NCBI GenBank assembly: GCA_964521285.1
Contig: CAZFQS010000004.1
Coordinates: 8,115-72,114, forward strand
Direction of reading: 5' to 3'
Length of the DNA stretch: 64,000 bases
From: an uncultured Bacteroidales bacterium
GTDB taxonomy: Bacteria > Bacteroidota > Bacteroidia > Bacteroidales > UBA10428
Numbering within the stretch: the stretch's first letter is position 1; each line of letters opens with the position of its first letter. Shown in pieces: positions 23,634-61,387 of the stretch. Under the pieces are notes generated by a model. That model did not search any database, had not been told where the DNA came from, and saw only the letters and a list, made by a program, of their open reading frames with translations. A program made the translations under genes and the position numbers.

Positions 23634-23668
23634 AAAAAAAAGGGCCGCTTGTCTGCAGCCCTTTTTTT
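23634..23668. terminator. Bidirectional intrinsic terminator
   Basis: A8-gggcCgc-ttgtct-gcAgccc-T7: a GC-rich stem with one mismatch, flanked by an A-run and a T-run. It lies 90 nt downstream of the amrS stop on the minus strand and could also end a plus-strand transcript. Confidence 0.6.
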
Positions 23669-23690: not shown

Positions 23691-23760
23691 CAATAGAACA
23701 ATAGAACAATAGAACAATAGAACAATTCAGCAATTTAACAATAGAACAATACAACAATCT
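23691..23760. repeat. 8-bp tandem repeat, about 9 units (caatagaa x4 perfect, then caattcag, caatttaa, caatagaa, caatacaa, caatct)
   Basis: Read directly from the sequence. It abuts the stop codon of the radical SAM gene at 23759..23761. Confidence 0.85.
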
Positions 23761-24913
23761 ACTTCCACACTCCGGGTATATTTTCACCACAATACTTACA
23801 TTTATTGTCTGTAATATTATTTGCCACAATTTGATATCCCCGTCTTTCAATCAGCACCTTTTTGCATTTGGGGCAGTATGTGTTTTCTGCTTTGGCGCCA
23901 GGGACATTTCCTATGTAAACAAACTTAATTCCTGCTTTCAGGGCGATCTCTCTTGCTTTTTGAAGTGTTGCCACAGGTGTTGATGGTAGTTGTGTTAACT
24001 TGTACTGGGGATGAAACCTGCTAAAATGCAGGGGATAATTATATAAATTGTTATTATATAACCAGTCACACATTTTTTTAATCATGTCGAAATCATCTGT
24101 CCAGCTGGGAACAATAAGATTTGTTATCTCCAGCCATACACCTTCTTCACTGAGAACTTTAAGTGTGTTAAGAACAGGCTGCAATGTTCCCCCGTTAAGT
24201 TTAAGATATATGCTGTCGCTAAAAGATTTTAAATCAACATTTGCTGCATCTATATATTTTACAAGATCCCGTAAAGGTTTTTCATTAATATAACCTGCAG
24301 TTACCAAAACGTTTTTTATGCCCCTCTCTCTGGCAAGCTTTGATGAGTCGTAAGTATATTCATAAAAAGTAATGGGCTCCGAATAAGTGTAAGCTATGGA
24401 CTCACAATTATCTTTAGCTGCTCTCTCAACCAGTGCCCGTGGCATTAAATCATAGTTTTTGGTTTTGCGAGGTGAAGTCTGTGAAATGGTCCAGTTCTGA
24501 CAGTTCAGGCATGCAAGGTTGCACCCTGCAGTAGCTACTGAAAAAGAATTGCTTGCAGGTAAAAAGTGAAAGAGAGGTTTCTTTTCAATAGGATCAATAT
24601 GAACGGCACACGGATTACCATAGGCAATTGTATAGAGCTTTCCTCCCTCATTTACCCTGTTATTACATGTACTTAGTTCACCTTCCTTAAGTGTACACTC
24701 ATTAGGACAAATCAAGCATTTTACACCGCGCGCTGTCTGAGTATAATGAGATGCTTCCTTACTCCACTTCCAAAGGTCTTTGCCAGCAATACTCTTCCAG
24801 GAACCTGAATCTATATTGTTAGCAAAAAGCTTATTCTTAAAGCTCAGGCATATTCCTGTAACACCGAGAATCCCGGTTTTGATAAATTGGCGTTTATCTA
24901 TTCTGTTATTCAT
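23759..24913 (-). CDS. amrS: AmmeMemoRadiSam system radical SAM enzyme with a Tat-like N-terminal signal
   Basis: The N-terminal Cys-rich segment 'CLICPNECTLKEGELSTCNNR' is followed by the radical SAM motif in family context, 'ATAGCNLACLNCQNWTIS'. The C-terminus is a zinc ribbon 'CPKCKK...CKYCGE'. The N-terminus 'MNNRIDKRQFIKTGILGVTGICLSF..LFA' resembles a Tat signal (KR variant). Confidence 0.8.
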   Translation of the reverse strand: MNNRIDKRQFIKTGILGVTGICLSFKNKLFANNIDSGSWKSIAGKDLWKWSKEASHYTQTARGVKCLICPNECTLKEGELSTCNNRVNEGGKLYTIAYGNPCAVHIDPIEKKPLFHFLPASNSFSVATAGCNLACLNCQNWTISQTSPRKTKNYDLMPRALVERAAKDNCESIAYTYSEPITFYEYTYDSSKLARERGIKNVLVTAGYINEKPLRDLVKYIDAANVDLKSFSDSIYLKLNGGTLQPVLNTLKVLSEEGVWLEITNLIVPSWTDDFDMIKKMCDWLYNNNLYNYPLHFSRFHPQYKLTQLPSTPVATLQKAREIALKAGIKFVYIGNVPGAKAENTYCPKCKKVLIERRGYQIVANNITDNKCKYCGENIPGVWK

Positions 24914-25097
24914 TTAATTCTTTTTACATATTCATTACCACACATTTCCCAATCAGATAAAACTGATAAAGGAAGTAGCTATAAGCAAAATTATTAAATT
25001 CTTCACCAAATCATTATAATTTAACATTTAAACATTATATGTGCAATCTGACTGTTCCACCAGACGTCAGTGTTTCCGTACTTTGTTTAACCATACT

Positions 25098-25460
25098 TTA
25101 ACAGGTAATATGAAACATTCCGACCTTTGGTTCTCCTTTTCCGTTCCAAATCTTTATTGCATCAGGTGTGGGCTCACAGATTACCTTACAATTCTTTGAT
25201 TTAAAATAATTAAGAGCCTCCCTGGATAGCTCCAGTGCATTATACTGTCCGGCCCCTATTATCACGTATTTAGCACCTTCCTCATAAATGAATTTGGCTT
25301 CCTTTTTTGATACAATATGAGAAGTGCCGTATTTTTCCTTTGACAGCTTTTTTTTCCTCTTCTCTATTGTATTGTCAATCCTTATTATCACATCATTATC
25401 ATACTTGTTCCCGTTTATAGTTATTGAGCCGAACCTTGTATTATCAATTACCGGTTTCAT
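25098..25460 (-). CDS. Mth938-like (DUF498) domain protein
   Basis: 'FGSITINGNKYDNDVII', 'KYGTSH', 'VIIGAGQYNAL' and 'EPTPDAIKIWN' match the MTH938/NDUFAF3-type fold pattern. Confidence 0.6.
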   Translation of the reverse strand: MKPVIDNTRFGSITINGNKYDNDVIIRIDNTIEKRKKKLSKEKYGTSHIVSKKEAKFIYEEGAKYVIIGAGQYNALELSREALNYFKSKNCKVICEPTPDAIKIWNGKGEPKVGMFHITC

Positions 25461-25650: not shown

Positions 25651-28017
25651 ATGGTTCCATTTTATAAAAAAACATTTTTTTATTTTTTGATAACATTAAT
25701 TCTGTTTCCTGTAGCAGCACAAAGACAAACAATCAGTGGTTATGTGAGAGATAAGAGTAACGGGGAAATGCTCATAGGTGCAAATGTATTTATTAAAGAC
25801 TCATATACAGGAACTGTCACAAACTCTTACGGATTTTATTCATTAAGTCTTAAACCCGGAAATTATTTAATTGTATACCAATACCTTGGATACAACACCA
25901 ATGAAATACCTGTTGAACTGGATAAGGATATTTCTGTTAATATTGAGTTAGAGACAACAACCGATAGCATTGATGCAGTAATTGTTACTGCTGAAAGAGG
26001 GGACGAGAATATTGTATCAACACAAATGAGTTCAATAAAAATAACCAGCAAGGTGATAAGCCAAATTCCTGTTATTTTGGGGGAAACTGATGTAATTAAG
26101 ACACTTAGTTTATTACCTGGTGTTAAAACTACTGGGGAGGTGAGTTCAAGTCTTAGCATAAGGGGCGGCGCCAGAGATCAGAATATGTTAATACTGGATG
26201 AAGCAACTGTTTATAATGCATCTCATCTGGGAGGATTCTTTTCAGTTTTTAACAATGATGCTATCAAGAACGTTGAATTATTTAAGGGAAATATACCTTC
26301 CCGGTACGGAGGGCGGTTATCTGCATTAATTGACGTCAGGATGAAAGACGGTAATAATAAAAGGTTTTCTGCTAACGGAGGTATTGGCCTATTATCAAGC
26401 CGGCTGACAATTGAGTCACCTATAGTAAAAAATAAAGGATCATTAATAATATCCGGAAGAAGAACCTATTATGATGTATTAATGAAAGTGCTTCACAGCA
26501 TTGCTGATACCATCCCGGAGCTGCCTGTCCATTTTTATGATCTTAACATGAAAGCAAATTATACTCTTAATGAAAAACACAGGTTGTTTATGTCAGGTTA
26601 TCTGGGCCGTGATGCAGCGGATTTAAGTATAGGTGAAGATGTCAGCAGTGAGTTTAACTGGGGCAATTATACCGCTACATTACGATGGAACTATATAATT
26701 AATAAAAGACTGTTTTCAAACTTAACATTGCTGGCCAGTAATTATGACTATGAAATTGAAAATATGTTAAGACTGGGAAGAGGAGATGAGGAATATATGT
26801 TCAGATGGAAGGCTTACTTAAAAGATTACTCTGCCAAACTTGATTTGGGTTTTTATTTGAATCCTGATAATACCTTAAGGTTTGGAATTCTTTCTACTTA
26901 TCATGACTTCAATGTAGGAAAAATTAATGGAAGAAGTGATACACTAACATGGGATTACAAGATTCCAAAAATATATTGTATTGAAAATGCTTTTTACCTG
27001 AGTAACGAACAAAGAATAACCGAAAAAATCAATATCAGCTACGGATTAAGATTTTCCACTCTTCACAATATAGGAAAAGCTACAATCTTTGTCTATGAAA
27101 ATTATAATGTTGTGGATACAAATTTATATGGGTGGGGCGAGATCTATAATACATATAGCGGACTTGAACCACGGCTGGGATTCACTTTTGTTCTTTCAGA
27201 GAAGAATTCAATAAAATGGGGCTATACAAGGACAAGGCAGTATCTGCAGATTGCTTCCAACTCAACATCGGGAACACCCATAGATATATGGATTCCGTCA
27301 AGTCCCAACGTTAAACCGCAGATTGCTGATCAATACAGCATAGGTTATTTCAGAAACTTTAAAAACAATATTATAAAAACATCAATAGAGCTTTATTATA
27401 AGAATATGCAAAACCAGGTAGACTTTAAAGAATTTGCCCAGCCACACTTAAATCCTGAAATTGAAGGAGAGCTTAGATTTGGTAAAGGAAGGGCTTATGG
27501 ACTGGAGCTTATGATAGAAAAGTCTGAAGGAAAATTAACAGGATGGGTAAGCTATACATTATCCAAATCAGAAAGGAACACGAGGGATATACAGGAAAAA
27601 GGATGGTACACTTCACCTTATGATATTCCTCATGATATTTCTGTTGTAGCGGCATATAAATTAACTAACAGAATTTTACTGTCAGCAAACTGGGTTTACC
27701 AGAGCGGGAGACCAATAAATGCTCCTGTAGCCAGATGGGAATACGGGGACCTTATTCTCCCCTACTTTCCGGGCAGAAACAATGACAGGATGCCTGACTA
27801 TCACAGACTGGATCTGGGACTCGAATTAAAGGGGAAACTAAAATCTGCTAAAAGATTTGAAAGCAGTCTTGTTTTTTCAATTTACAACGTTTATAACAGG
27901 AAGAATGCTAATACTGTATATTTTGTCCAGGATTATGAAACACAAACTGTTACCAAAGCTATGAAAGTATCTTTATTCAGAATAATGCCTTCTATTACTT
28001 ATAACTTTAAGTTCTGA
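25651..28017 (+). CDS. TonB-dependent receptor with an N-terminal carboxypeptidase-regulatory-like domain
   Basis: Signal peptide present. CarboxypepD_reg pattern: 'ISGYVRDKSNGEMLIGANVFIKDSYTGTVTNSYGFYSL'. Plug pattern: 'LPGV...SLSIRGG..DQN..LLDEA.VYN'. The C-terminal beta-barrel ends in 'YNFKF'. Confidence 0.85.
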   Translation: MVPFYKKTFFYFLITLILFPVAAQRQTISGYVRDKSNGEMLIGANVFIKDSYTGTVTNSYGFYSLSLKPGNYLIVYQYLGYNTNEIPVELDKDISVNIELETTTDSIDAVIVTAERGDENIVSTQMSSIKITSKVISQIPVILGETDVIKTLSLLPGVKTTGEVSSSLSIRGGARDQNMLILDEATVYNASHLGGFFSVFNNDAIKNVELFKGNIPSRYGGRLSALIDVRMKDGNNKRFSANGGIGLLSSRLTIESPIVKNKGSLIISGRRTYYDVLMKVLHSIADTIPELPVHFYDLNMKANYTLNEKHRLFMSGYLGRDAADLSIGEDVSSEFNWGNYTATLRWNYIINKRLFSNLTLLASNYDYEIENMLRLGRGDEEYMFRWKAYLKDYSAKLDLGFYLNPDNTLRFGILSTYHDFNVGKINGRSDTLTWDYKIPKIYCIENAFYLSNEQRITEKINISYGLRFSTLHNIGKATIFVYENYNVVDTNLYGWGEIYNTYSGLEPRLGFTFVLSEKNSIKWGYTRTRQYLQIASNSTSGTPIDIWIPSSPNVKPQIADQYSIGYFRNFKNNIIKTSIELYYKNMQNQVDFKEFAQPHLNPEIEGELRFGKGRAYGLELMIEKSEGKLTGWVSYTLSKSERNTRDIQEKGWYTSPYDIPHDISVVAAYKLTNRILLSANWVYQSGRPINAPVARWEYGDLILPYFPGRNNDRMPDYHRLDLGLELKGKLKSAKRFESSLVFSIYNVYNRKNANTVYFVQDYETQTVTKAMKVSLFRIMPSITYNFKF

Positions 28018-28039
28018 CTAATAAAAAAAATGATTCACT

Positions 28040-28903
28040 ATGAAGTTATATAGCTTATTAGTATCGATATTAATAACTCTGGTTTGTTGCGAGCCTCAAG
28101 AAGAAATCAGCTGGAAGGTTGATGAAATTCCCGATCGTCTGGTCGTTGAAGGATCAATTACAAATGAACTTAAATTACATACAGTAACATTAAAAAAGTC
28201 AGGTAATTACTTTTCCAATACTGCAGCAGAAGTTGTATCAAATGCTGTTGTCACCATCACTGATGGAAGTAATATTTTTTATTTTGAAGAAAATCCTGCA
28301 GGCTCCGGTATATATAAAACTACAGAAGAAGTTAAAGGTGATACAGGCAGGCTTTATACACTAAATATCAATATTGATGAGCCTTTGAATAATGAGACAC
28401 ACTTTTCAGCCAGGTCTTTCTTAAACAGTAATATAAGAGCAGACTCAATGATAAGTATAATATATGAGAGCCCGTTTATATTTAACAATGCTGACACCGT
28501 AATACTTGTAAATAATATATTTGGCTACGAACCTGAACCTGCAGGGGACTATTATACTGTAAGTTTATATAGAAACGGTACATTACTTAATGATACTATA
28601 GATGAGTATATTACAATCTATGACAGAAATAGCGGGATAAACGGAGCTGATTTTTTCCCATTTGCTTTTCTTGAGAATTTTGCTATTGGTGATACTGTAG
28701 AAATGGAGTTCCGGTCAATAAGCAAGGCATATTATGATTTTATTGACGGAGTAAAAAGGATATCCAGCGGCACTGATCCTTTTGGATTTACCGGTCCTCC
28801 TGCAAACCCTGTTGGTAATATTGAAGGAGGGAACGCCCTGGGCTTTTTTAACGCTTCGGCTGTGACAAGAGTGAGAGCGCAAACAAGGGCGCTGTTACCC
28901 TAA
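28040..28903 (+). CDS. DUF4249-family lipoprotein (usual partner of this receptor class)
   Basis: Lipobox 'LVCC'. Size and position directly after a CarboxypepD_reg TonB receptor fit the family. A typical 'VVEG.ITN....H.V.L..S' N-terminal segment is present. Confidence 0.6.
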   Translation: MKLYSLLVSILITLVCCEPQEEISWKVDEIPDRLVVEGSITNELKLHTVTLKKSGNYFSNTAAEVVSNAVVTITDGSNIFYFEENPAGSGIYKTTEEVKGDTGRLYTLNINIDEPLNNETHFSARSFLNSNIRADSMISIIYESPFIFNNADTVILVNNIFGYEPEPAGDYYTVSLYRNGTLLNDTIDEYITIYDRNSGINGADFFPFAFLENFAIGDTVEMEFRSISKAYYDFIDGVKRISSGTDPFGFTGPPANPVGNIEGGNALGFFNASAVTRVRAQTRALLP

Positions 28904-29859
28904 GCCATCGGATAACTAAACAGTGGTTTTTCTACCTGCCCTTTTTCCTTCATTTCAATAACTTCTTCAGGTGCAAGTGGCGTGAACCTTTTAATCAGGT
29001 TAAGTGCCATCTTAAAAAGATCCTCGTTTCCCGGAGGTATGGCCGCTGTTACAGGATGGGAAAGTGTAAACCGTAAACCCATAAGTGCTTCTTCAGGATC
29101 TGTGAGGGGTTCATACCAGCACTTGGGAATTTTGTTTTCTGTATCTTCAGGATACGGGCGCCTTGCCATAGCTTTGATAGCCAGTATTCCCATTCCCTTA
29201 TCCTTTGCCCTTTCAAGAACCTGTGGGCCAAAGTTACCTGCATGCCATGTTGCAAAGTTTATCGGAAAAAGTATAGTATCGAAATCAAACCTGTCCATAA
29301 GAGCCATGGCCGCTTCTACCGAGTGGGCAGAGAAACCGATATAGCGGATTTTCCCTTCTTCCCTGGCTTTTACAAATGCCTTGATGGCGCCATCAGAACC
29401 AAATATTGTATCAACATCCTCAAGCTTTCGTACAGCATGTAACTGGTACAAATCGAAATGCTCGGTTCTCAGGTTTTTAAGAGACTTATCTAATTCTTTT
29501 ATTGCACCGTCATATTTTCGCTCCTGTGTTTTGCAGGCAAGGAATACATCAGACCTGTATGGCTCAAGGGCCGGGCCTAGTTTAACTTCAGCATCACCAT
29601 AGGTAGGTGCCACGTCAAAATAGTTAATGCCATGATCAATAGCTAAACTTACATATTCAGATGCCTGCTCAGGTGTCGTATCCATTATTACAACTCCGCC
29701 GAGACCAAGGATCGACAATTTTTCTCCTGTACTGCCTAATGTACGTTTCTCAATCATGCCGGCTGCCTTTGTACGATAAATAGACGACAGGTCTGCCGGA
29801 AAAAAGCTGACCAGTGGTGCAGCTGCAGCTGTTATTTTTATAAATTTTCGTCTTTTCAT
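28900..29859 (-). CDS. Aldo/keto reductase with a twin-arginine signal peptide
   Basis: The N-terminus 'MKRRKFIKITAAAAPL' is a Tat motif. AKR motifs are present: 'LGLGG', 'GINYFDVAPTYGDAE', 'DLYQLH', 'IRYIGFS'. Confidence 0.85.
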   Translation of the reverse strand: MKRRKFIKITAAAAPLVSFFPADLSSIYRTKAAGMIEKRTLGSTGEKLSILGLGGVVIMDTTPEQASEYVSLAIDHGINYFDVAPTYGDAEVKLGPALEPYRSDVFLACKTQERKYDGAIKELDKSLKNLRTEHFDLYQLHAVRKLEDVDTIFGSDGAIKAFVKAREEGKIRYIGFSAHSVEAAMALMDRFDFDTILFPINFATWHAGNFGPQVLERAKDKGMGILAIKAMARRPYPEDTENKIPKCWYEPLTDPEEALMGLRFTLSHPVTAAIPPGNEDLFKMALNLIKRFTPLAPEEVIEMKEKGQVEKPLFSYPMA

Positions 29860-57239: not shown

Positions 57240-58838
57240 ATGAACCTCTATTCTAAATTTGGAAATTTAAATATTTTACTTTTTGTAGTAATACAAATAT
57301 TCTTTTTTACGTCATGCAATTCACAAAACACTAAAAACCAACAAATGCAAAATTCATATAAAGAATTAAAAGACCGTGAACCTGTTGTTGCGGGGCAGTT
57401 CTATCCCGGACGATCAGACGAACTCAGTGCAGACCTTATTAAACTCTTTTCTGAAGCTGAACAGAAAAAAGTCAAAGGGGAAGTACTTGCAATAATTGCC
57501 CCCCATGCAGGATATGTTTTTTCAGGTGAAGTAGCAGCATCAAGTTTTAATCAGATAAATCCCAAAAAGAAATATGAAATAGTGTTTGTTATAGGTTCAA
57601 GTCATAGAACAGCTTTTGAGGGAGCTTCAATATATAACAAGGGTAATTATAAAACGCCTTTAGGTACAGTAAATGTTGATTTACAGATAGCCAATAATCT
57701 TATTAATAAATATGATGTTTTTAAATACAGGTCAGAGGCACATCAATATGAACATAGCCTTGAAGTTCAGCTACCTTTCCTGCAGCATATCATGGAAACC
57801 GACTTTAAAATTGTACCGATAGTTTTAGGTACTCAATCTCCTGAAACATGTAAAAAAATTGCCGGCGCACTGGCACCTTATTTTAATTCGGATAATCTGT
57901 TTGTTATAAGTACAGATTTTTCTCATTACCCACAATACGAAGATGCTAATAAGGTAGACAATTTAACTGCCAGCGCAATAACCTCTAATGATCCTGATAA
58001 ACTTCTTACCACATTAGGAAAGAATTCGCAAATGAACATTTCTAACCTTGCTACAAGTTTATGTGGCTGGACATCAGTATTAACATTAATGTATATAACA
58101 GAGGGTATGACTGACATTAAATATTATCCTGTAGAATATAAAAACTCGGGTGATGCCCGATTCTATGGTGATAAATCAAGAGTCGTAGGCTATTATTCCA
58201 TTGCCGTGGCAAAGGAAGTGGAAGAAAACACACTTCCTGAAAATGAAACAAAAAAAGAGAATCCAAAAAAAAAAGACTTTGAATTAACAGGAGAAGATAA
58301 AAAGGTACTTCTTGGGATAGCACGTAATACTATTGAAGATTATGTTAATAATAAGAATATTCCTAAAATAGACACAGAAGGATTTTCACAAAACCTGCTT
58401 ACCAACACCGGCGCATTTGTTACTATTCATAAGGATGGAAAATTGCGTGGTTGTATTGGAAGATTTGAACCCGATATTCAGTTATATAAAGTAGTACAGG
58501 AGGTAGCCATTTCAGCGGCGACCAGAGATTTCAGATTTAGTCCCGTTGCACGGGATGAGCTTGAAAATATTGATATTGAAATATCTGTACTTACACCTTT
58601 AAGAAAAATCGATTCCGCTGATGAAATTGAACTGGGTAAGCATGGCATATATATAAAACAGGGACGTAATTCGGGAACATTCCTGCCGCAGGTGGCTATA
58701 CAAACCGGCTGGAACCTGGAAGAATTTCTCGGGCATTGTTCGCGGGATAAAGCTGGTATAGGATGGGACGGATGGAAAAATGCTGATCTTTATGTATATG
58801 AGGCACTGATTTTTTCCGAAAATGAATTAATCCATTGA
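57240..58838 (+). CDS. amrB-amrA: Memo (AmmeMemoRadiSam protein B) fused to AMMECR1 (protein A), with a lipoprotein-type signal peptide
   Basis: The N-terminus is 'LLFVVIQIFFFTSCNS'. The Memo block is 'PVVAGQFYPG' and 'AIIAPHAGYVFSGEVAASSF'. A charged linker follows. The AMMECR1 block is 'GAFVTIHKDGKLRGCIGRFEP', 'AATRDFRFSPV' and 'IEISVLTPL'. Confidence 0.85.
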   Translation: MNLYSKFGNLNILLFVVIQIFFFTSCNSQNTKNQQMQNSYKELKDREPVVAGQFYPGRSDELSADLIKLFSEAEQKKVKGEVLAIIAPHAGYVFSGEVAASSFNQINPKKKYEIVFVIGSSHRTAFEGASIYNKGNYKTPLGTVNVDLQIANNLINKYDVFKYRSEAHQYEHSLEVQLPFLQHIMETDFKIVPIVLGTQSPETCKKIAGALAPYFNSDNLFVISTDFSHYPQYEDANKVDNLTASAITSNDPDKLLTTLGKNSQMNISNLATSLCGWTSVLTLMYITEGMTDIKYYPVEYKNSGDARFYGDKSRVVGYYSIAVAKEVEENTLPENETKKENPKKKDFELTGEDKKVLLGIARNTIEDYVNNKNIPKIDTEGFSQNLLTNTGAFVTIHKDGKLRGCIGRFEPDIQLYKVVQEVAISAATRDFRFSPVARDELENIDIEISVLTPLRKIDSADEIELGKHGIYIKQGRNSGTFLPQVAIQTGWNLEEFLGHCSRDKAGIGWDGWKNADLYVYEALIFSENELIH

Positions 58839-58864: not shown

Positions 58865-61387
58865 ATGAATTCCCCTTACCTCATATTTCCGATAGGTGTT
58901 CTTTTGCTAGTTTTATATCTAATTTCATTAAGCCTTTCAAGACTTTCTTTTATAAAACTTGCTACTCACAGAAAATTTTGGAACGTTCTTCTGCTAACAG
59001 CATTTTTTGTTACAGCAATACTGGGACTCATTCTTGCTATACAGGTGAATTATAAAATTAAGATCCCTTTTATTAAACAGCTGCTTACCCTGCATGTTGA
59101 TTTCGGAATTGGAATGACCACTATAGCAATATTTCATTTCCTGTGGCACTGGAATTATTACCTTAATCTGCTTAAAAAGAAAAACCTGAAAAAAAAGACA
59201 GGTGAAGAGGAACTAAAAGCTATGGAAGAAGTCAGTGTGGATTCTGAAAAGCCGGTCAGTATAAGATTTTTTGAAGCGCTGCCCTTATTTGTTCTTGGTT
59301 TTACAGCTATATTATCTCAGATAGTGTTGTTAAGAGAGTTCTTGCTGGTCTTTGGCGGTAACGAACTTGTTTGCGGCCTTGTCCTGGCAAACTGGATGAT
59401 CCTGACAGGGACAGGCGCCTTTATTGGAAGAATTACCAGAAGAACAGGATTCACCAGGAACTTTGTTTTTTATGCACTGGTCTTACTCGGACTGATCCCC
59501 CCAATTACTGTATTTCTCATAAACAATTTTAAAAATATTGTATTCGAACCGGGTATTGCCATAGGATTATTTCAGATTTTATACTCTACTCTTATTATAC
59601 TTTTACCCTTCTGCCTTTTGTCAGGATTCCTCTTTACCTGGCTGGCAACAAAACTCTCAATAAATATGAAAGCCAATGTAATAGAGAAGGCTTACGCTTT
59701 TGAATCTATAGGCAGTATTATTGGAGGAGGCCTGTTTAGTTTTGTTCTTGTATATTTTCTGACTACCTATCAGGTATTAGGTATATTGTTGTCAGTTAAT
59801 ATTTTAACCGGACTGGTACTCGCATTCAGACTTAGATTTAATATATATAAAGTTATTTTGCTTGTTTTATCCCTTTCATTTATAATAGTGTTTTTTATTA
59901 CTGATTTTGATTCTTTTTCAAAAAAGGCCTTGTTCAGAAATCAGGAATTGATTTTTCTTAAAGATACACCCTATGGTAATCTTGCCATAACACGCTCAGG
60001 GGATCAGTTAAACTTTTATGAAAACAACATTCTCCTGTTCAATACTTATAACACGATAGCGAATGAAGAAGCCGTCCATTATGCTATGGTACAGCACAGG
60101 GATCCGAAAAGTGTTTTATTAATATCAGGAGGAATATCAGGTATAACTGATGAAATACTAAAATATAATGTTGCCAGAATTGACTATATTGAACTTAATC
60201 CCTTGATATTCAGAATTGGCAAACAATTTACAGAGTCATTGGAAGATAAGCGAATAAATGCAATAGAAACAGATGCCCGGCTTTTTTTAAAAAAGACAAC
60301 TAACAAATACGATATTGTACTGATTAATTTACCCGAACCTTCAACTGCACAAATAAACAGGTATTATACAATTGAATTCTTCAGGCTGCTGAAAAAAAGA
60401 CTTAACCGGAATGCAATAATTTCTTTGGGTCTTCCTTCAACAGCAAATTATATTAGCAAAGAAGCAGCAAGGGTAAACTCTGTAATATATACAACCATTA
60501 AACAGGTATTTAGAGAAATTCTGGTTATACCGGGCGAAAAAAATTTCTTCATTATTTCTGACAACCCGCTAAGTATAAATATTGGCAAATTAATTGAAGA
60601 TAAAGGAATAGACAATGTTTATGTTAACCGTTACTATCTTGATGATAATCTTCTGAAGCAAAGGAGTAATTACATATTAACGAATATTTCTCATGATGTA
60701 AAAATTAATAAGGACTTCAGACCCGTCTCATATTTCAACCAGTTGCTATTCTGGATAAGCCAGTTTAATTTCAACTTAAATGTCTTTTTGATTATAAGTA
60801 CTATCATATTATTTGCAGTGGCATTATTAATAAGCAGACTCAACCCTGTTAACCTGGGAATATTTGCTGCAGGATTTACTGCCTCTTCTGTAGAGGTAAT
60901 GCTAATCATTTCATTCCAGATCATTTACGGATATGTTTACCAGACATTAGGTATAATAATAACAATCTTTATGGCCGGTCTGGCTACAGGGGCCCTGTTA
61001 AGGAAAAAGTTTTTCCCGGCACCAAAAAATAAACATTATTATATTTTACAATTCTCTCTTGCAATATATTCGATTATTTTACCTTTTATAATAGTATTTA
61101 CTGAATCATTATCAACCTTTCCAAACCTGGTACATATTATTTTCTTCATACTGACCTTTGTTATATCTCTTGTTGTTGGCTTTTTATTTGCTATAGCAAC
61201 TCTAATACAAAAGGAAGCTATTTCGGAAATCTCAGCAAAGGTTTACAGTGTAGATTTATTGGGCGCAGCTTTGGGTGCCCTTATTATTTCAATCTTGCTG
61301 ATTCCTTTAATCGGAATTGTTTATACGGGAATTATTCTTGGTATTTTAAATTTATTGTGTGCTCTAATTACATTTTTAAAATCATAA
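58865..61387 (+). CDS. Polytopic membrane protein with an embedded spermidine-synthase-like (class I methyltransferase-fold) domain
   Basis: An N-terminal 3-TM module ('HVDFGIGMTTIAIFHFLWHWNY') is followed by about 8 TM helices. The soluble domain has 'VLLISGGISG', 'IDYIELNP' and 'YDIVLINLPEPSTAQINRYYTIEFF'. About 5 further TM helices follow. Confidence 0.7.
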   Translation: MNSPYLIFPIGVLLLVLYLISLSLSRLSFIKLATHRKFWNVLLLTAFFVTAILGLILAIQVNYKIKIPFIKQLLTLHVDFGIGMTTIAIFHFLWHWNYYLNLLKKKNLKKKTGEEELKAMEEVSVDSEKPVSIRFFEALPLFVLGFTAILSQIVLLREFLLVFGGNELVCGLVLANWMILTGTGAFIGRITRRTGFTRNFVFYALVLLGLIPPITVFLINNFKNIVFEPGIAIGLFQILYSTLIILLPFCLLSGFLFTWLATKLSINMKANVIEKAYAFESIGSIIGGGLFSFVLVYFLTTYQVLGILLSVNILTGLVLAFRLRFNIYKVILLVLSLSFIIVFFITDFDSFSKKALFRNQELIFLKDTPYGNLAITRSGDQLNFYENNILLFNTYNTIANEEAVHYAMVQHRDPKSVLLISGGISGITDEILKYNVARIDYIELNPLIFRIGKQFTESLEDKRINAIETDARLFLKKTTNKYDIVLINLPEPSTAQINRYYTIEFFRLLKKRLNRNAIISLGLPSTANYISKEAARVNSVIYTTIKQVFREILVIPGEKNFFIISDNPLSINIGKLIEDKGIDNVYVNRYYLDDNLLKQRSNYILTNISHDVKINKDFRPVSYFNQLLFWISQFNFNLNVFLIISTIILFAVALLISRLNPVNLGIFAAGFTASSVEVMLIISFQIIYGYVYQTLGIIITIFMAGLATGALLRKKFFPAPKNKHYYILQFSLAIYSIILPFIIVFTESLSTFPNLVHIIFFILTFVISLVVGFLFAIATLIQKEAISEISAKVYSVDLLGAALGALIISILLIPLIGIVYTGIILGILNLLCALITFLKS

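Follow-up and report, generated by a model that had tools for sequence, protein, structure and literature searches.

Gene content of the locus

The window, by which we mean the whole 64-kb stretch of DNA analysed here, encodes on its minus strand a radical SAM enzyme of the AmmeMemoRadiSam system (AmrS) and, beginning 32.3 kb away from it on the plus strand, a protein in which Memo (AmrB) and AMMECR1 (AmrA) form a single chain. An 840-aa polytopic membrane protein is encoded on the same strand as the fusion. The features are listed in Table 1. The N-terminus of AmrS is MNNRIDKRQFIKTGILGVTGICLSFKNKLFANN, and GCNLACLNCQNW also lies within the protein; Memo-AMMECR1 begins with MNLYSKFGNLNILLFVVIQIFFFTSC. 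An earlier note on this DNA had described a Tat-shaped signal with KR on AmrS, had set it beside the RR signal of an aldo/keto reductase (AKR), and had placed the fused Memo and AMMECR1 behind a lipoprotein signal about 33 kb away. Each of these features was confirmed.

Table 1. Features of the window, with positions, strand and supporting evidence
Feature	Position	Strand	Evidence or remark
amrS, AmmeMemoRadiSam-system radical SAM enzyme precursor	23759..24913	-	384 aa, stop codon within span; ORF, TIGR04337 and PF04055
Predicted Tat-type signal peptide, AmrS residues 1-31	24821..24913	-	n-region with motif; h-region TGILGVTGICLSF; c-region KNKLFA
Tat consensus variant D-K-R-Q-F-I-K, AmrS residues 6-12	24878..24898	-	K7-R8 replaces RR
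Variable linker, AmrS residues 32-45	24779..24820	-	mean top-residue fraction 0.23, indels; low pLDDT
Conserved mature AmrS enzyme, residues 46-384	23762..24778	-	opens with clade motif LWKWSKEA
N-terminal Cys motif C66-x2-C69-P-x2-C73 ... C83	24665..24718	-	alignment
Radical SAM cluster motif C131-x3-C135-x2-C138	24500..24523	-	invariant, alignment of 42 diverse members
C-terminal Cys pairs C347/C350 and C372/C375	23789..23875	-	invariant or nearly so in alignment
Intrinsic terminator, hairpin then U8 run, ends amrS transcript	23635..23668	-	fold energy -20.5 kcal/mol, z = -6.0
Possible Bacteroidota -7 box TAATTTTG	24986..24993	-	about 73 nt upstream of amrS ATG, read from sequence
DUF498/Mth938-like gene	25098..25460	-	PF04430, 47 bits; 184 nt upstream of amrS
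Aldo/keto reductase (AKR)	28900..29859	-	begins MKRRKFIK
Fused Memo (AmrB)-AMMECR1 (AmrA) lipoprotein precursor	57240..58838	+	532 aa; TIGR04336, TIGR04335, PF01875, PF01871
Lipoprotein-type signal, residues 1-25, and lipobox F-T-S-C26	57240..57317	+	sequence; hydropathy 3.10
Polytopic membrane protein, 840 aa	58865..61387	+	NF037959, 52.1 bits against cutoff 40; PF01564, 66.7 bits
Spermidine-synthase-like (SAM/dcSAM-binding fold) domain, about residues 355-555 of the 840-aa protein	59927..60529	+	central

The possible -7 box was read against TAnnTTTG, which we take to be the consensus of Bacteroides promoters, and is also conserved in a related locus (L085), where the terminator hairpin is kept as well. 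This terminator had been missed by the promoter/terminator scan, and folding confirmed the hairpin.

The amrS gene product

AmrS matched TIGR04337 with 373.4 bits (cutoff 220) over residues 62-383 and PF04055 with 63 bits, and its ORF encodes a bona fide AmmeMemoRadiSam radical SAM enzyme. The expected co-occurrence with AMMECR1 (TIGR04335) and Memo (TIGR04336) is met within the window by the fusion, which is not adjacent to amrS. In the alignment of diverse members, C66, C69 and C83 are invariant and C73 is conserved in at least 90%; this N-terminal motif is probably an auxiliary metal or cluster site, a function that is inferred. The C-terminal pairs are likewise inferred to form a zinc-ribbon-like or cluster site. 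In the AF2 model, the core reaches a pLDDT of at least 95 and residues 1-45 are detached and of low confidence, with a single helix at residues 7-24 and a pLDDT of 42-65 in the signal. The N-terminal extension covers about 50 aa ahead of the TIGR04337 match, and alignment places the first residue of signal-less homologues at the equivalent of about residue 46.

Anatomy and conservation of the predicted signal

The canonical Tat motif is S/T-R-R-x-F-L-K, and the family consensus at the corresponding site of AmrS is S-K-R-x-F-[ILVM]-K. The twin-arginine criterion is unmet, with K7-R8 in place of two consecutive arginines; the other consensus positions are met, the preceding residue being S, N or T in the family (D in the window protein) and position 11 being I, V, L or M. 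The earlier note had suggested a survey of homologues for conserved signals, and among 120 AmrS homologues with 67-94% identity the Tat-like motif was kept in 117, the other three being gene calls that begin inside or past the h-region. KR was present in 112 of the 120 and an in-register RR in 6. In the conservation profile, built on the 117, R8 and F10 were found in 100% of the sequences, K7 in 95% (the rest carrying R) and K12 in 86%. Alignment also places the KR of the window protein in register with the canonical RR of AmrS from other phyla: RR signals occur at the same position in about 30 of the best 150 AmrS cluster representatives, and the four RR-bearing representatives tested all exceed the TIGR04337 cutoff.

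Behind the motif, the profile has a tripartite shape, with no net charge in columns 14-23 and almost none in columns 13 and 24-25; in the window protein, residues 13-25 are uncharged and the basic K26 and K28 lie in the c-region. A putative signal peptidase I site follows L-F-A, cleavage there being inferred. The maximum 12-residue hydropathy of the AmrS signal in the window is 1.95; the partner's Sec/SPII signal reaches 3.10 and the AKR's RR signal 1.85. Across the family, the h-region of AmrS has a hydropathy of 1.64 +/- 0.24 with 28% Gly, against 2.54 +/- 0.46 with 2% Gly for the partner's Sec-type signals (p = 4e-29). Judged by these values, the hydrophobicity of the AmrS h-region is Tat-type rather than Sec-type. 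Low h-region hydrophobicity and a basic c-region are documented for Tat signals, TtrB is a natural and functional KR variant, and substitution of R by K is tolerated in the Tat signals of SufI and TorA (PMC1182353).

The window was scanned for the Tat-like pattern in six frames, from every ATG, GTG and TTG start, in ORFs of at least 100 aa, and only AmrS and the AKR matched the pattern plus an uncharged stretch. The AKR, with its canonical RR signal, points to the use of Tat by this organism; neither tatA or tatC nor a TatA-like motif was found within the 64-kb window. The Tat profile TIGR01409 gave no match to the N-terminus of the window AmrS at E up to 10, and an RR-bearing AmrS homologue scored 13.3 bits, below the cutoff of 16.7. 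We count this failure as uninformative, because the model has only 29 positions and is RR-based. In Omnitrophota and Elusimicrobia, the AmrS N-terminus looks Sec-like or lipoprotein-like and has no RR, which fits poorly with the export of a protein that carries Fe-S clusters.

Memo-AMMECR1 and the 840-aa membrane protein

Memo-AMMECR1 exceeded the cutoffs of both TIGR04336 (261.7 bits) and TIGR04335 (166.4 bits), and its PDB relatives are MEMO1 and MM0484/PH0010. The protein contains what we take to be the AMMECR1 motif LRGCIG and the Memo motifs. By sequence anatomy, without a predictor, the criteria for signal peptidase II are met: K6 is followed by LNILLFVVIQIFFF and then by F-T-S-C26. Phenylalanine at -3 of a lipobox is atypical compared with E. 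coli. Among 120 homologues, 77 carry a signal plus the Cys and 16 an SPI-type signal, the rest being mostly truncated gene calls; overall, a signal persists in about 100 of the 120. As far as these alignments go, the partner bears a conserved lipoprotein or Sec signal.

The 840-aa protein, absent from the earlier note, is a fourth conserved component: in about 41 of 80 loci, spread over different phyla, a homologue is the neighbour of AmrS. Its match to NF037959, the fused MFS/spermidine synthase family, exceeds the curated cutoff, and it aligns with Thermus SpeE (1uir; E = 3e-17). The SAM-binding residues are conserved (G-rich loop, acidic residue and adenine-binding Asp), whereas the catalytic Asp in the D-x-x-D-P of polyamine aminopropyltransferases has become Asn in this protein, as it has in 23 of about 40 homologues, so that the motif reads N-L-P-E-P. 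Assignment as a polyamine aminopropyltransferase was rejected, with 63.9 bits against 249.55 for TIGR00417 and 161.5 against 472 for PRK03612. Compared with NF037959/PRK03612 proteins, its domain is flanked on each side by a block of transmembrane helices and predicted to be periplasmic, and the gene is tied genomically to the AmmeMemoRadiSam genes. The topology calls are crude, home-made hydrophobicity and positive-inside counts; they put the spermidine-synthase-like domain in the periplasm in 24 of 29 homologues. The domain therefore appears to face the periplasm, an orientation that is inferred.

Gene order and co-variation of the signals

The earlier note had called amrS unlinked from its partners. 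This holds for the window, where they are about 32 kb apart, but not for most relatives, in which they form one operon with the membrane gene between them. Bacteroidota, Ignavibacteriota, Desulfobacterota and Verrucomicrobiota all have examples of the order Memo-AMMECR1, membrane protein, AmrS, and in many relatives amrS directly neighbours its partner genes or shares an operon with them. On this comparison of gene orders, the separation is a rearrangement peculiar to this lineage. The note had also pointed to the Mth938-like gene upstream of amrS. Its distance and shared strand are as described, but it did not hold up as a conserved partner of the system: a homologue occurs near AmrS in only 1 of 80 loci, and synteny is limited to close relatives.

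The co-variation of signals was drawn from 80 genomes/loci. Both AmrS and Memo-AMMECR1 carry a signal in 26 loci and neither does in 6; a signal on Memo-AMMECR1 only was found in 5 and on AmrS only in none (Fisher p = 2e-4). These statistics are uncorrected for phylogeny, and the classes of signal fall into a few clades. In the Bacteroidales clade without signals, both proteins begin exactly at the mature motifs and the membrane gene is absent. Read across genomes, the signals of the two proteins are gained or lost in concert. A signal-less AmrS beside a signal-bearing, exported-type Memo-AMMECR1 was seen in five or six loci (L028, L042, L053, L059, L072 and perhaps L027), and co-localisation is therefore not obligatory.

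In other organisms, AmrS is found as part of single chains that open with one N-terminal signal and also contain domains of extracytoplasmic type, among them a beta-propeller, CBM_11, FMN_bind and Memo plus AMMECR1. AmrS is also fused to DsbD-like and FMN_bind/NapH-like modules. Crude helix counts in the NosR-like/DsbD-like fusions are odd for P0255 and even for P0256 and P0262. These fusions serve only as a hint, because such counts are ambiguous.

Localisation and possible mechanism

Our main reading, to which we give a rough probability of 0.6, is that residues 1-31 of AmrS are a KR-type Tat signal and that the enzyme belongs to a four-part extracytoplasmic system; actual export and cleavage are inferred. 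The AmmeMemoRadiSam system encoded here probably works outside the cytoplasm, because the AmrS signal is conserved and the partners bear export or membrane signals. The suggestion in the earlier note that all components may be targeted outside, with AmrS going through Tat, is thus supported, although by comparative sequence evidence only. AmrS would acquire its Fe-S clusters, and probably SAM too, while still in the cytoplasm, and the Tat system would move the folded enzyme across the inner membrane. Memo-AMMECR1 would be exported unfolded by Sec and then lipidated. Periplasmic AmrS could then act with this lipoprotein and the 840-aa membrane protein, and the substrate of the four-part set, whose nature is inferred, would be found within the cell envelope or at it.

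Radical SAM chemistry requires SAM and a low-potential reductant, and to our knowledge neither is known in the periplasm. The earlier note had considered an exported radical SAM enzyme mechanistically puzzling; this puzzle remains and deepens, and the sources of both are unexplained. SAM may be a bound, regenerated cofactor that is carried along, or may be supplied by the membrane partner, and electrons may be drawn from low-potential carriers in the periplasm or from conduits in the membrane; both routes are inferred. Such sources of electrons are suggested by the DsbD-like and FMN_bind/NapH-like modules to which AmrS is fused in other organisms. In the fullest form of the proposal, Tat-exported AmrS, the lipoprotein and the membrane protein would carry out extracytoplasmic radical SAM catalysis and modify an envelope lipid or polymer, with SAM (or a derivative) and electrons crossing via the membrane partner or DsbD-/NapH-like conduits. 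We put this forward tentatively, as a possibility that the evidence does not yet favour. If true, it would be the first extracytoplasmic radical SAM system, would entail a periplasmic supply of SAM, and would place the long-sought function of Memo/AMMECR1 at the cell envelope.

Other explanations were weighed against the same observations. AmrS may stay in the cytoplasm, its N-terminus being either a membrane tether or, as in NarG, the vestige of a Tat signal, while a product or substrate passes via the 840-aa protein to periplasmic Memo-AMMECR1. SAM and the required reductant are available at the cytoplasmic face, KR stands in place of RR, and TIGR01409 fails; moreover, the loci with a signal-less AmrS and an exported Memo-AMMECR1 show that AmrS can support an exported partner from within the cytoplasm. 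Among the fusions, the charge distribution round the N-terminal helix of P0254 favours a cytoplasmic catalytic part, as does the odd number of predicted helices after FMN_bind in the NosR-like P0255. Yet only about 13 uncharged residues separate K12 from K26, too few for a transmembrane helix, and the positive charges ahead of the h-region predict the N-terminus inside and the C-terminus outside. A vestige would not be expected to retain an h-region, a c-region with A or G at -1 and, in many phyla, RR, and the signals of both partners were lost together in one clade. We consider retention in the cytoplasm unlikely. It is also conceivable, if quite doubtful, that AmrS reacts in the cytoplasm before export, for instance by making or altering a bound group or one of its own residues, and that Tat delivers a loaded carrier with one or few turnovers to the partners in the periplasm. 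This would remove the problem of SAM and reductant and fits the nearest solved fold, the PFL-activating enzyme, which has a protein substrate. We know of no carrier-type radical SAM enzyme, however, and the AmrS fusions to transmembrane electron-transfer modules would be left unexplained, as would the membrane partner's SAM-fold domain, which is apparently periplasmic. In support of such a route, Tat carries folded, cofactor-loaded proteins (PMC1182353), and in the HXS system the maturation of Tat-exported effectors by radical SAM chemistry in the cytoplasm has been documented (PMC13128918).

The two remaining explanations concern the signal itself. An ordinary Sec signal with unfolded crossing is very improbable: the h-region of AmrS is weakly hydrophobic, Gly-rich and clearly apart from the partner's Sec-type signals, K26 and K28 make the c-region basic, and R8, F10, [ILVM]11 and K12 are conserved. 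The enzyme also has an invariant CX3CX2C and eight more conserved Cys, and as far as we know Fe-S clusters cannot be acquired after Sec export. Only the RR-less and very hydrophobic N-termini of some distant homologues (L074, L077, L082 and L083) speak for Sec. That the signal is an annotation artefact, with translation beginning downstream, is scarcely credible. The earlier note had named a better downstream start as something that would refute its reading, and for AmrS this is ruled out: past M1, the only in-frame starts are TTG-67, beyond the invariant C66, and ATG-157, beyond the cluster motif. The extension is also conserved as protein, with only synonymous changes in the motif codons relative to a 91%-identical homologue. 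Nothing in AmrS favours an artefact; Memo-AMMECR1 has an internal ATG at codon 36 (M36), the equivalent of which is chosen by some gene callers, but M36 is disfavoured as the true start because the signal is conserved in about 100 of 120 homologues.

The Memo/AMMECR1/radical SAM trio is conserved from archaea to humans, and MEMO1 and AMMECR1 are disease-linked; we know of no reaction for the trio. Export signals on the whole set in many bacterial phyla, the tie to a membrane protein and the apparent concerted gain and loss of signals sharply restrict where a substrate is to be sought and can be tested genetically. Radical SAM enzymes are one of the largest enzyme superfamilies and are treated as strictly cytoplasmic, because SAM, a low-potential donor and protection of labile clusters are needed. 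A widespread, conserved Tat-targeted member would challenge this assumption, and it would raise the concrete question of how the enzyme receives SAM and electrons from across the membrane. A literature search found no published account of an exported, periplasmic or Tat radical SAM enzyme, and at the level of titles and abstracts the AmmeMemoRadiSam literature held nothing on function or localisation. A prior mention of the signals or the membrane partner in Burroughs et al. 2019 (JBC), reportedly the principal comparison of gene contexts around Memo-AMMECR1 and radical SAM, is not excluded. A survey of flavinylation makes no mention of radical SAM or Memo (PMC8238504).

Comparison with known systems

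The three families of the AmmeMemoRadiSam system, TIGR04335 (AmrA), TIGR04336 (AmrB) and TIGR04337 (AmrS), all score above their curated cutoffs here, and the radical SAM cluster motif is intact. The version described here differs in the Tat-type signal on AmrS, in the fusion of Memo and AMMECR1 behind a lipoprotein signal, in the membrane protein with its spermidine-synthase-like domain as a conserved fourth part of the module, and in the distance of 32 kb between amrS and its partners in this lineage. The TIGR04337 model spans neither the signal nor the linker, and signal-less versions exist in a sister Bacteroidales clade.

The PFL activating enzyme is the nearest solved structure to AmrS, both by sequence (PDB 3cb8, 3c8f and 8fo0; E = 6e-10) and by fold (3cb8; E = 1e-15, TM 0.78-0.81 normalised to target), and the two share a partial TIM-barrel radical SAM core. 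AmrS adds N-terminal and C-terminal Cys4 modules and the export signal, and lacks a glycyl-radical enzyme partner. A role as activase of a glycyl-radical enzyme was rejected (TIGR02493, 60.7 bits against a cutoff of 231.75), the likeness being in fold only.

Salmonella TtrB, itself a KR protein, resembles AmrS in its N-terminal S/T-[KR]-R-x-F-[LI]-K motif, in the weak hydrophobicity of its h-region and in its basic c-region (PMC1182353). Clusters that need insertion before export are common to AmrS and Tat-exported Fe-S proteins. Those of the TtrB type are ferredoxin-type electron-transfer subunits of respiratory enzymes, whereas AmrS is a SAM-requiring radical SAM enzyme. In anaerobic sulfatase-maturating enzymes and the HXS antiphage system (PMC13128918), a radical SAM enzyme is also tied functionally to periplasmic proteins. 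There, only the substrate has a signal and the enzyme is cytoplasmic; here, AmrS itself bears one. By analogy, a cytoplasmic-maturase model is plausible for the loci that pair a signal-less AmrS with a signal-bearing Memo-AMMECR1. NarG is a cofactor-containing enzyme with a Tat-like motif minus one arginine, a remnant not known to have a hydrophobic h-region or a cleavage region. AmrS, in contrast, keeps both regions, and its relatives in other phyla keep RR.

Identity of AmrS and its surroundings

Family membership of AmrS, the AmmeMemoRadiSam radical SAM enzyme, is established by its match to TIGR04337 (373.4 bits, well clear of the 220-bit cutoff), which begins only at residue 62. The N-terminus (MNNRIDKRQFIKTGILGVTGICLSFKNKLFANN) carries the Tat-like KR recognised in the earlier note, and the translated ORF also contains GCNLACLNCQNW. 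In the AlphaFold2 model, residues 46-384 reach a pLDDT of at least 95, and residues 1-45 form a detached helix and coil with pLDDT values of 42-65. The end of a DUF498/Mth938-like gene was placed 184 nt upstream, as had been claimed; all features listed in the earlier note were thus found in the sequence. A TonB-dependent receptor-like gene and a 287-aa gene adjoin this DUF498-amrS pair. L085, a close relative (91% identical in protein), has kept this arrangement, and its counterparts carry CarboxypepD_reg + Plug and DUF4249 domains, respectively; no link to AmmeMemoRadiSam is evident.

Features of the amrS locus, the AmrS signal and the partner genes
Feature	Position	Strand	Description
amrS	23759..24913	-	384-aa ORF; TIGR04337 and Pfam Radical_SAM matches
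AmrS motif	residues 6-12		R8 and F10 100%, K7 95% (otherwise R), K12 86%
AmrS h-region	residues 13-25		essentially uncharged (columns 14-23 without net charge), Gly-rich
AmrS c-region	residues 26-31		x-K-L-F-[AG]
AmrS linker	residues 32-45		poorly conserved, indel-rich
AmrS mature enzyme	from L47		sharply conserved, begins LWKWSKEA
8-nt repeat array	23691..23758	+	8.5 tandem copies of CAATAGAA (as read on the + strand), directly 3' of the amrS stop and before the terminator
Receptor-like gene and 287-aa gene	25651..28903		receptor-like product 788 aa
Aldo/keto reductase (AKR)	28900..29859	-	RR Tat signal
Memo-AMMECR1 fusion	57240..58838	+	TIGR04336 and TIGR04335 above cutoff
840-aa polytopic membrane protein	58865..61387	+	gene after Memo-AMMECR1; central spermidine-synthase-like domain (NF037959, PF01564)

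Beyond M1, the only in-frame starts of amrS are TTG codon 67, located 3' of the invariant Cys66, and ATG codon 157, located 3' of the cluster motif. A better downstream start, named in the earlier note as a route to refutation, is thus excluded for AmrS, as no start other than M1 precedes Cys66. The motif codons differ from those of the 91% relative only by synonymous changes (cgc to cgg, aaa to aag), and the N-terminal extension is, on sequence grounds, translated. A strong terminator hairpin was found by folding about 100 nt 3' of the amrS stop (-20.5 kcal/mol, z = -6), and a possible Bacteroidota-type -7 promoter box lies about 73 nt 5' of the ATG; together, these suggest that amrS can be transcribed independently. 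The 8-nt array is not present in L085 and is therefore a recent, strain-specific expansion.

Anatomy and conservation of the signal

Conservation of the signal was observed across the 120 best AmrS homologues (67-94% identity, 375-392 aa): KR was found in 112 and an in-register RR in 6, and the three without the full motif are gene calls starting inside or beyond the h-region. Their column profile is that of a classic tripartite signal. The maximum 12-residue hydropathy was 1.64 +/- 0.24 (Gly 28%) in AmrS homologues, whereas Memo-AMMECR1 homologues reached 2.54 +/- 0.46 (Gly 2%; p = 4e-29); the window AmrS and AKR scored 1.95 and 1.85, respectively. By this calculated measure, the AmrS h-region is distinct from Sec-type signals. 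According to the TatP paper (PMC1182353), Tat signals have a less hydrophobic h-region and carry basic residues in the c-region, R-to-K substitution is tolerated, and the signal of Salmonella TtrB naturally contains KR.

The whole window was scanned for Tat motifs in six frames, using every possible start of each ORF with 100 aa or more, and a Tat-like motif with an uncharged stretch was found only in AmrS and AKR. The MKRRKFIK start of AKR, previously described as bona fide, was confirmed in the sequence; its canonical RR Tat signal (MKRRKFIKITAAAAPLVSFF) acts as the in-window control for this organism's use of Tat.

AmrS across the wider family

A search with core residues 44-384 against 1.84 billion cluster representatives recovered 1425 proteins at E <= 1e-30. 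The best 150 of these form four groups. In the first, some 30 proteins have a canonical RR signal at this position (e.g. DRRRFLK, SRRDFIK, TRREFL), aligned in register with the window KR; the four tested exceed the TIGR04337 cutoff (295-318 bits). Many of the best 150 are 330-350 aa long and begin directly at the mature N-terminus, some possess hydrophobic N-terminal anchors, and some are fusions.

Fusions were called by Pfam and a crude helix prediction. Behind a single N-terminal signal or anchor, AmrS is fused to a beta-propeller (P0241), CBM_11 (P0243) or FMN_bind (P0272), domains that are typically extracytoplasmic; in P0247 and P0254 it is fused to Memo and AMMECR1. Other fusions join it to DsbD_2 (P0246, P0253) or to FMN_bind and NapH/NosR-like Fer4_5 modules (P0255, P0256, P0262), which are parts of transmembrane electron-transfer systems. 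These hint at an electron route for an exported AmrS, the side on which AmrS lies being unresolved by helix counts. The flavinylation survey PMC8238504 does not mention AmrS fusions with DsbD_2, FMN_bind or Fer4_5.

Several further arrangements were observed. In Omnitrophota, Elusimicrobia, Chlamydiae and other candidate-phylum MAGs (loci L025, L040, L048, L051, L054, L067, L074, L077, L082 and L083), AmrS has a very hydrophobic N-terminus without RR, either Sec-like or lipobox-like (e.g. MKKSLLLLILLLSVLFPAIGA|DQ). Such N-termini do not fit easily with the insertion of Fe-S clusters, and no Fe-S enzyme is known to be exported by Sec. Four loci (L058, L073, L080, L084) encode another, unnamed radical SAM family (about 350 aa), for which no NCBIfam model reaches its cutoff. 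Its members likewise start with a canonical Tat motif (M..TRRDFIK) and are encoded divergently, on the opposite strand, beside an AmrS-like paralogue; radical SAM proteins other than AmrS may therefore have Tat-type signals as well. In locus L003 (5799..7873), the amrS gene (P0251, RR-type signal) overlaps an upstream 71-aa Cys-rich ORF and a downstream 226-aa secreted-protein gene with GYVPMGL-type internal repeats, with no Memo or AMMECR1 gene nearby. In the case of L016, a contig labelled Candidatus Aenigmatarchaeota, a Bacteroidota-like AmrS (54% identity) with a Tat signal accompanies the membrane partner, probably through mis-binning, or possibly through horizontal transfer.

Co-variation with Memo-AMMECR1 and a fourth component

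Memo and AMMECR1 are indeed fused behind a signal peptide (N-terminus MNLYSKFGNLNILLFVVIQIFFFTSC). Among 120 homologues, a signal is followed by Cys in 77 and is SPI-type in 16; most others are gene calls starting within or just past the signal. Co-variation was observed in a survey of 80 loci from many phyla, in which the three proteins (AmrS, Memo, AMMECR1) were identified with custom HMMs. After manual curation, signals occur on both AmrS and Memo(-AMMECR1) in 26 loci, on neither in 6, on AmrS alone in none and on the partner alone in five, possibly six (Fisher p = 2e-4, no phylogenetic correction). The partner-only loci show that co-localisation is not universal. A rough neighbour-joining tree places the window AmrS in a Bacteroidota/Ignavibacteriota clade with Tat signals. 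In a related Bacteroidales/Paludibacter clade, both proteins lack signals and begin a few residues ahead of their conserved mature motifs, which looks like coordinated loss or gain.

The 840-aa membrane protein passes the NF037959 cutoff of 40 with 52.1 bits. Of the 80 loci, about 41 have a homologue adjoining AmrS, across phyla. The conserved operon lies on a single strand and usually runs Memo-AMMECR1, membrane protein, AmrS, as observed in Bacteroidota, Ignavibacteriota, Desulfobacterota and Verrucomicrobiota. Because this order recurs, the 32-kb separation, common to relatives of 91-95% identity, is attributed to a lineage-specific rearrangement; the earlier description of AmrS as unlinked from its partners holds within the window but not generally. 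The membrane-protein gene is missing from loci where AmrS and Memo-AMMECR1 both lack signals, and its presence is associated with the AmrS signal (38:23 against 3:13, p = 0.004). By a crude home-made positive-inside count, the spermidine-synthase-like domain faces the periplasm in 24 of 29 homologues, the window protein among them; this topology is inferred only.

Interpretation and comparison with known systems

We consider it reasonably probable (about 60%) that AmrS would receive its clusters in the cytoplasm, be exported folded by Tat via its KR-type signal, and work on the periplasmic side of the membrane together with the membrane protein and the lipoprotein Memo-AMMECR1. The evidence for an exported AmrS is comparative but broad; export and cleavage are inferred, as are a supply of SAM and electrons and a substrate. 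Radical SAM chemistry, together with the five or six loci in which AmrS lacks a signal and its partner is exported, would suit a vestigial motif or a cytoplasm-facing tether. We regard this as unlikely, though not negligible: the h-region has only 13 residues, the charge distribution speaks against it, other phyla have canonical RR, and signals were lost in concert.

If AmrS and the SAM-fold domain of its membrane partner are both periplasmic, the source of SAM is unexplained. Catalysis before export, with AmrS as a carrier, would resolve this problem but is without precedent, and we find it rather doubtful. Hydropathy and the requirement for Fe-S cluster insertion both contradict Sec export, making it very improbable, and a start-codon artefact, excluded for AmrS by its codons, retains practically no weight. 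The preferred reading, Tat export of AmrS, would surprise specialists in radical SAM enzymology. The three AmmeMemoRadiSam protein families are already known and named; no paper in the literature covered, which did not include the most relevant comparative study (Burroughs et al. 2019), was found to describe export of a radical SAM enzyme, to note that AmrS bears a Tat signal, or to report on the membrane partner.

The closest solved fold to AmrS is that of pyruvate formate-lyase activating enzyme, which identifies AmrS as an activase-like radical SAM protein; the folds are alike, but AmrS has two extra Cys4 modules. Alignment of the membrane protein with Thermus SpeE (PDB 1uir) revealed conservation of the nucleotide-binding elements, namely the G-rich loop, the acidic residue and the invariant Asp, whereas the position at which aminopropyltransferases have their catalytic Asp is mostly Asn in this family (motif N-L-P-E-P), including the window protein.
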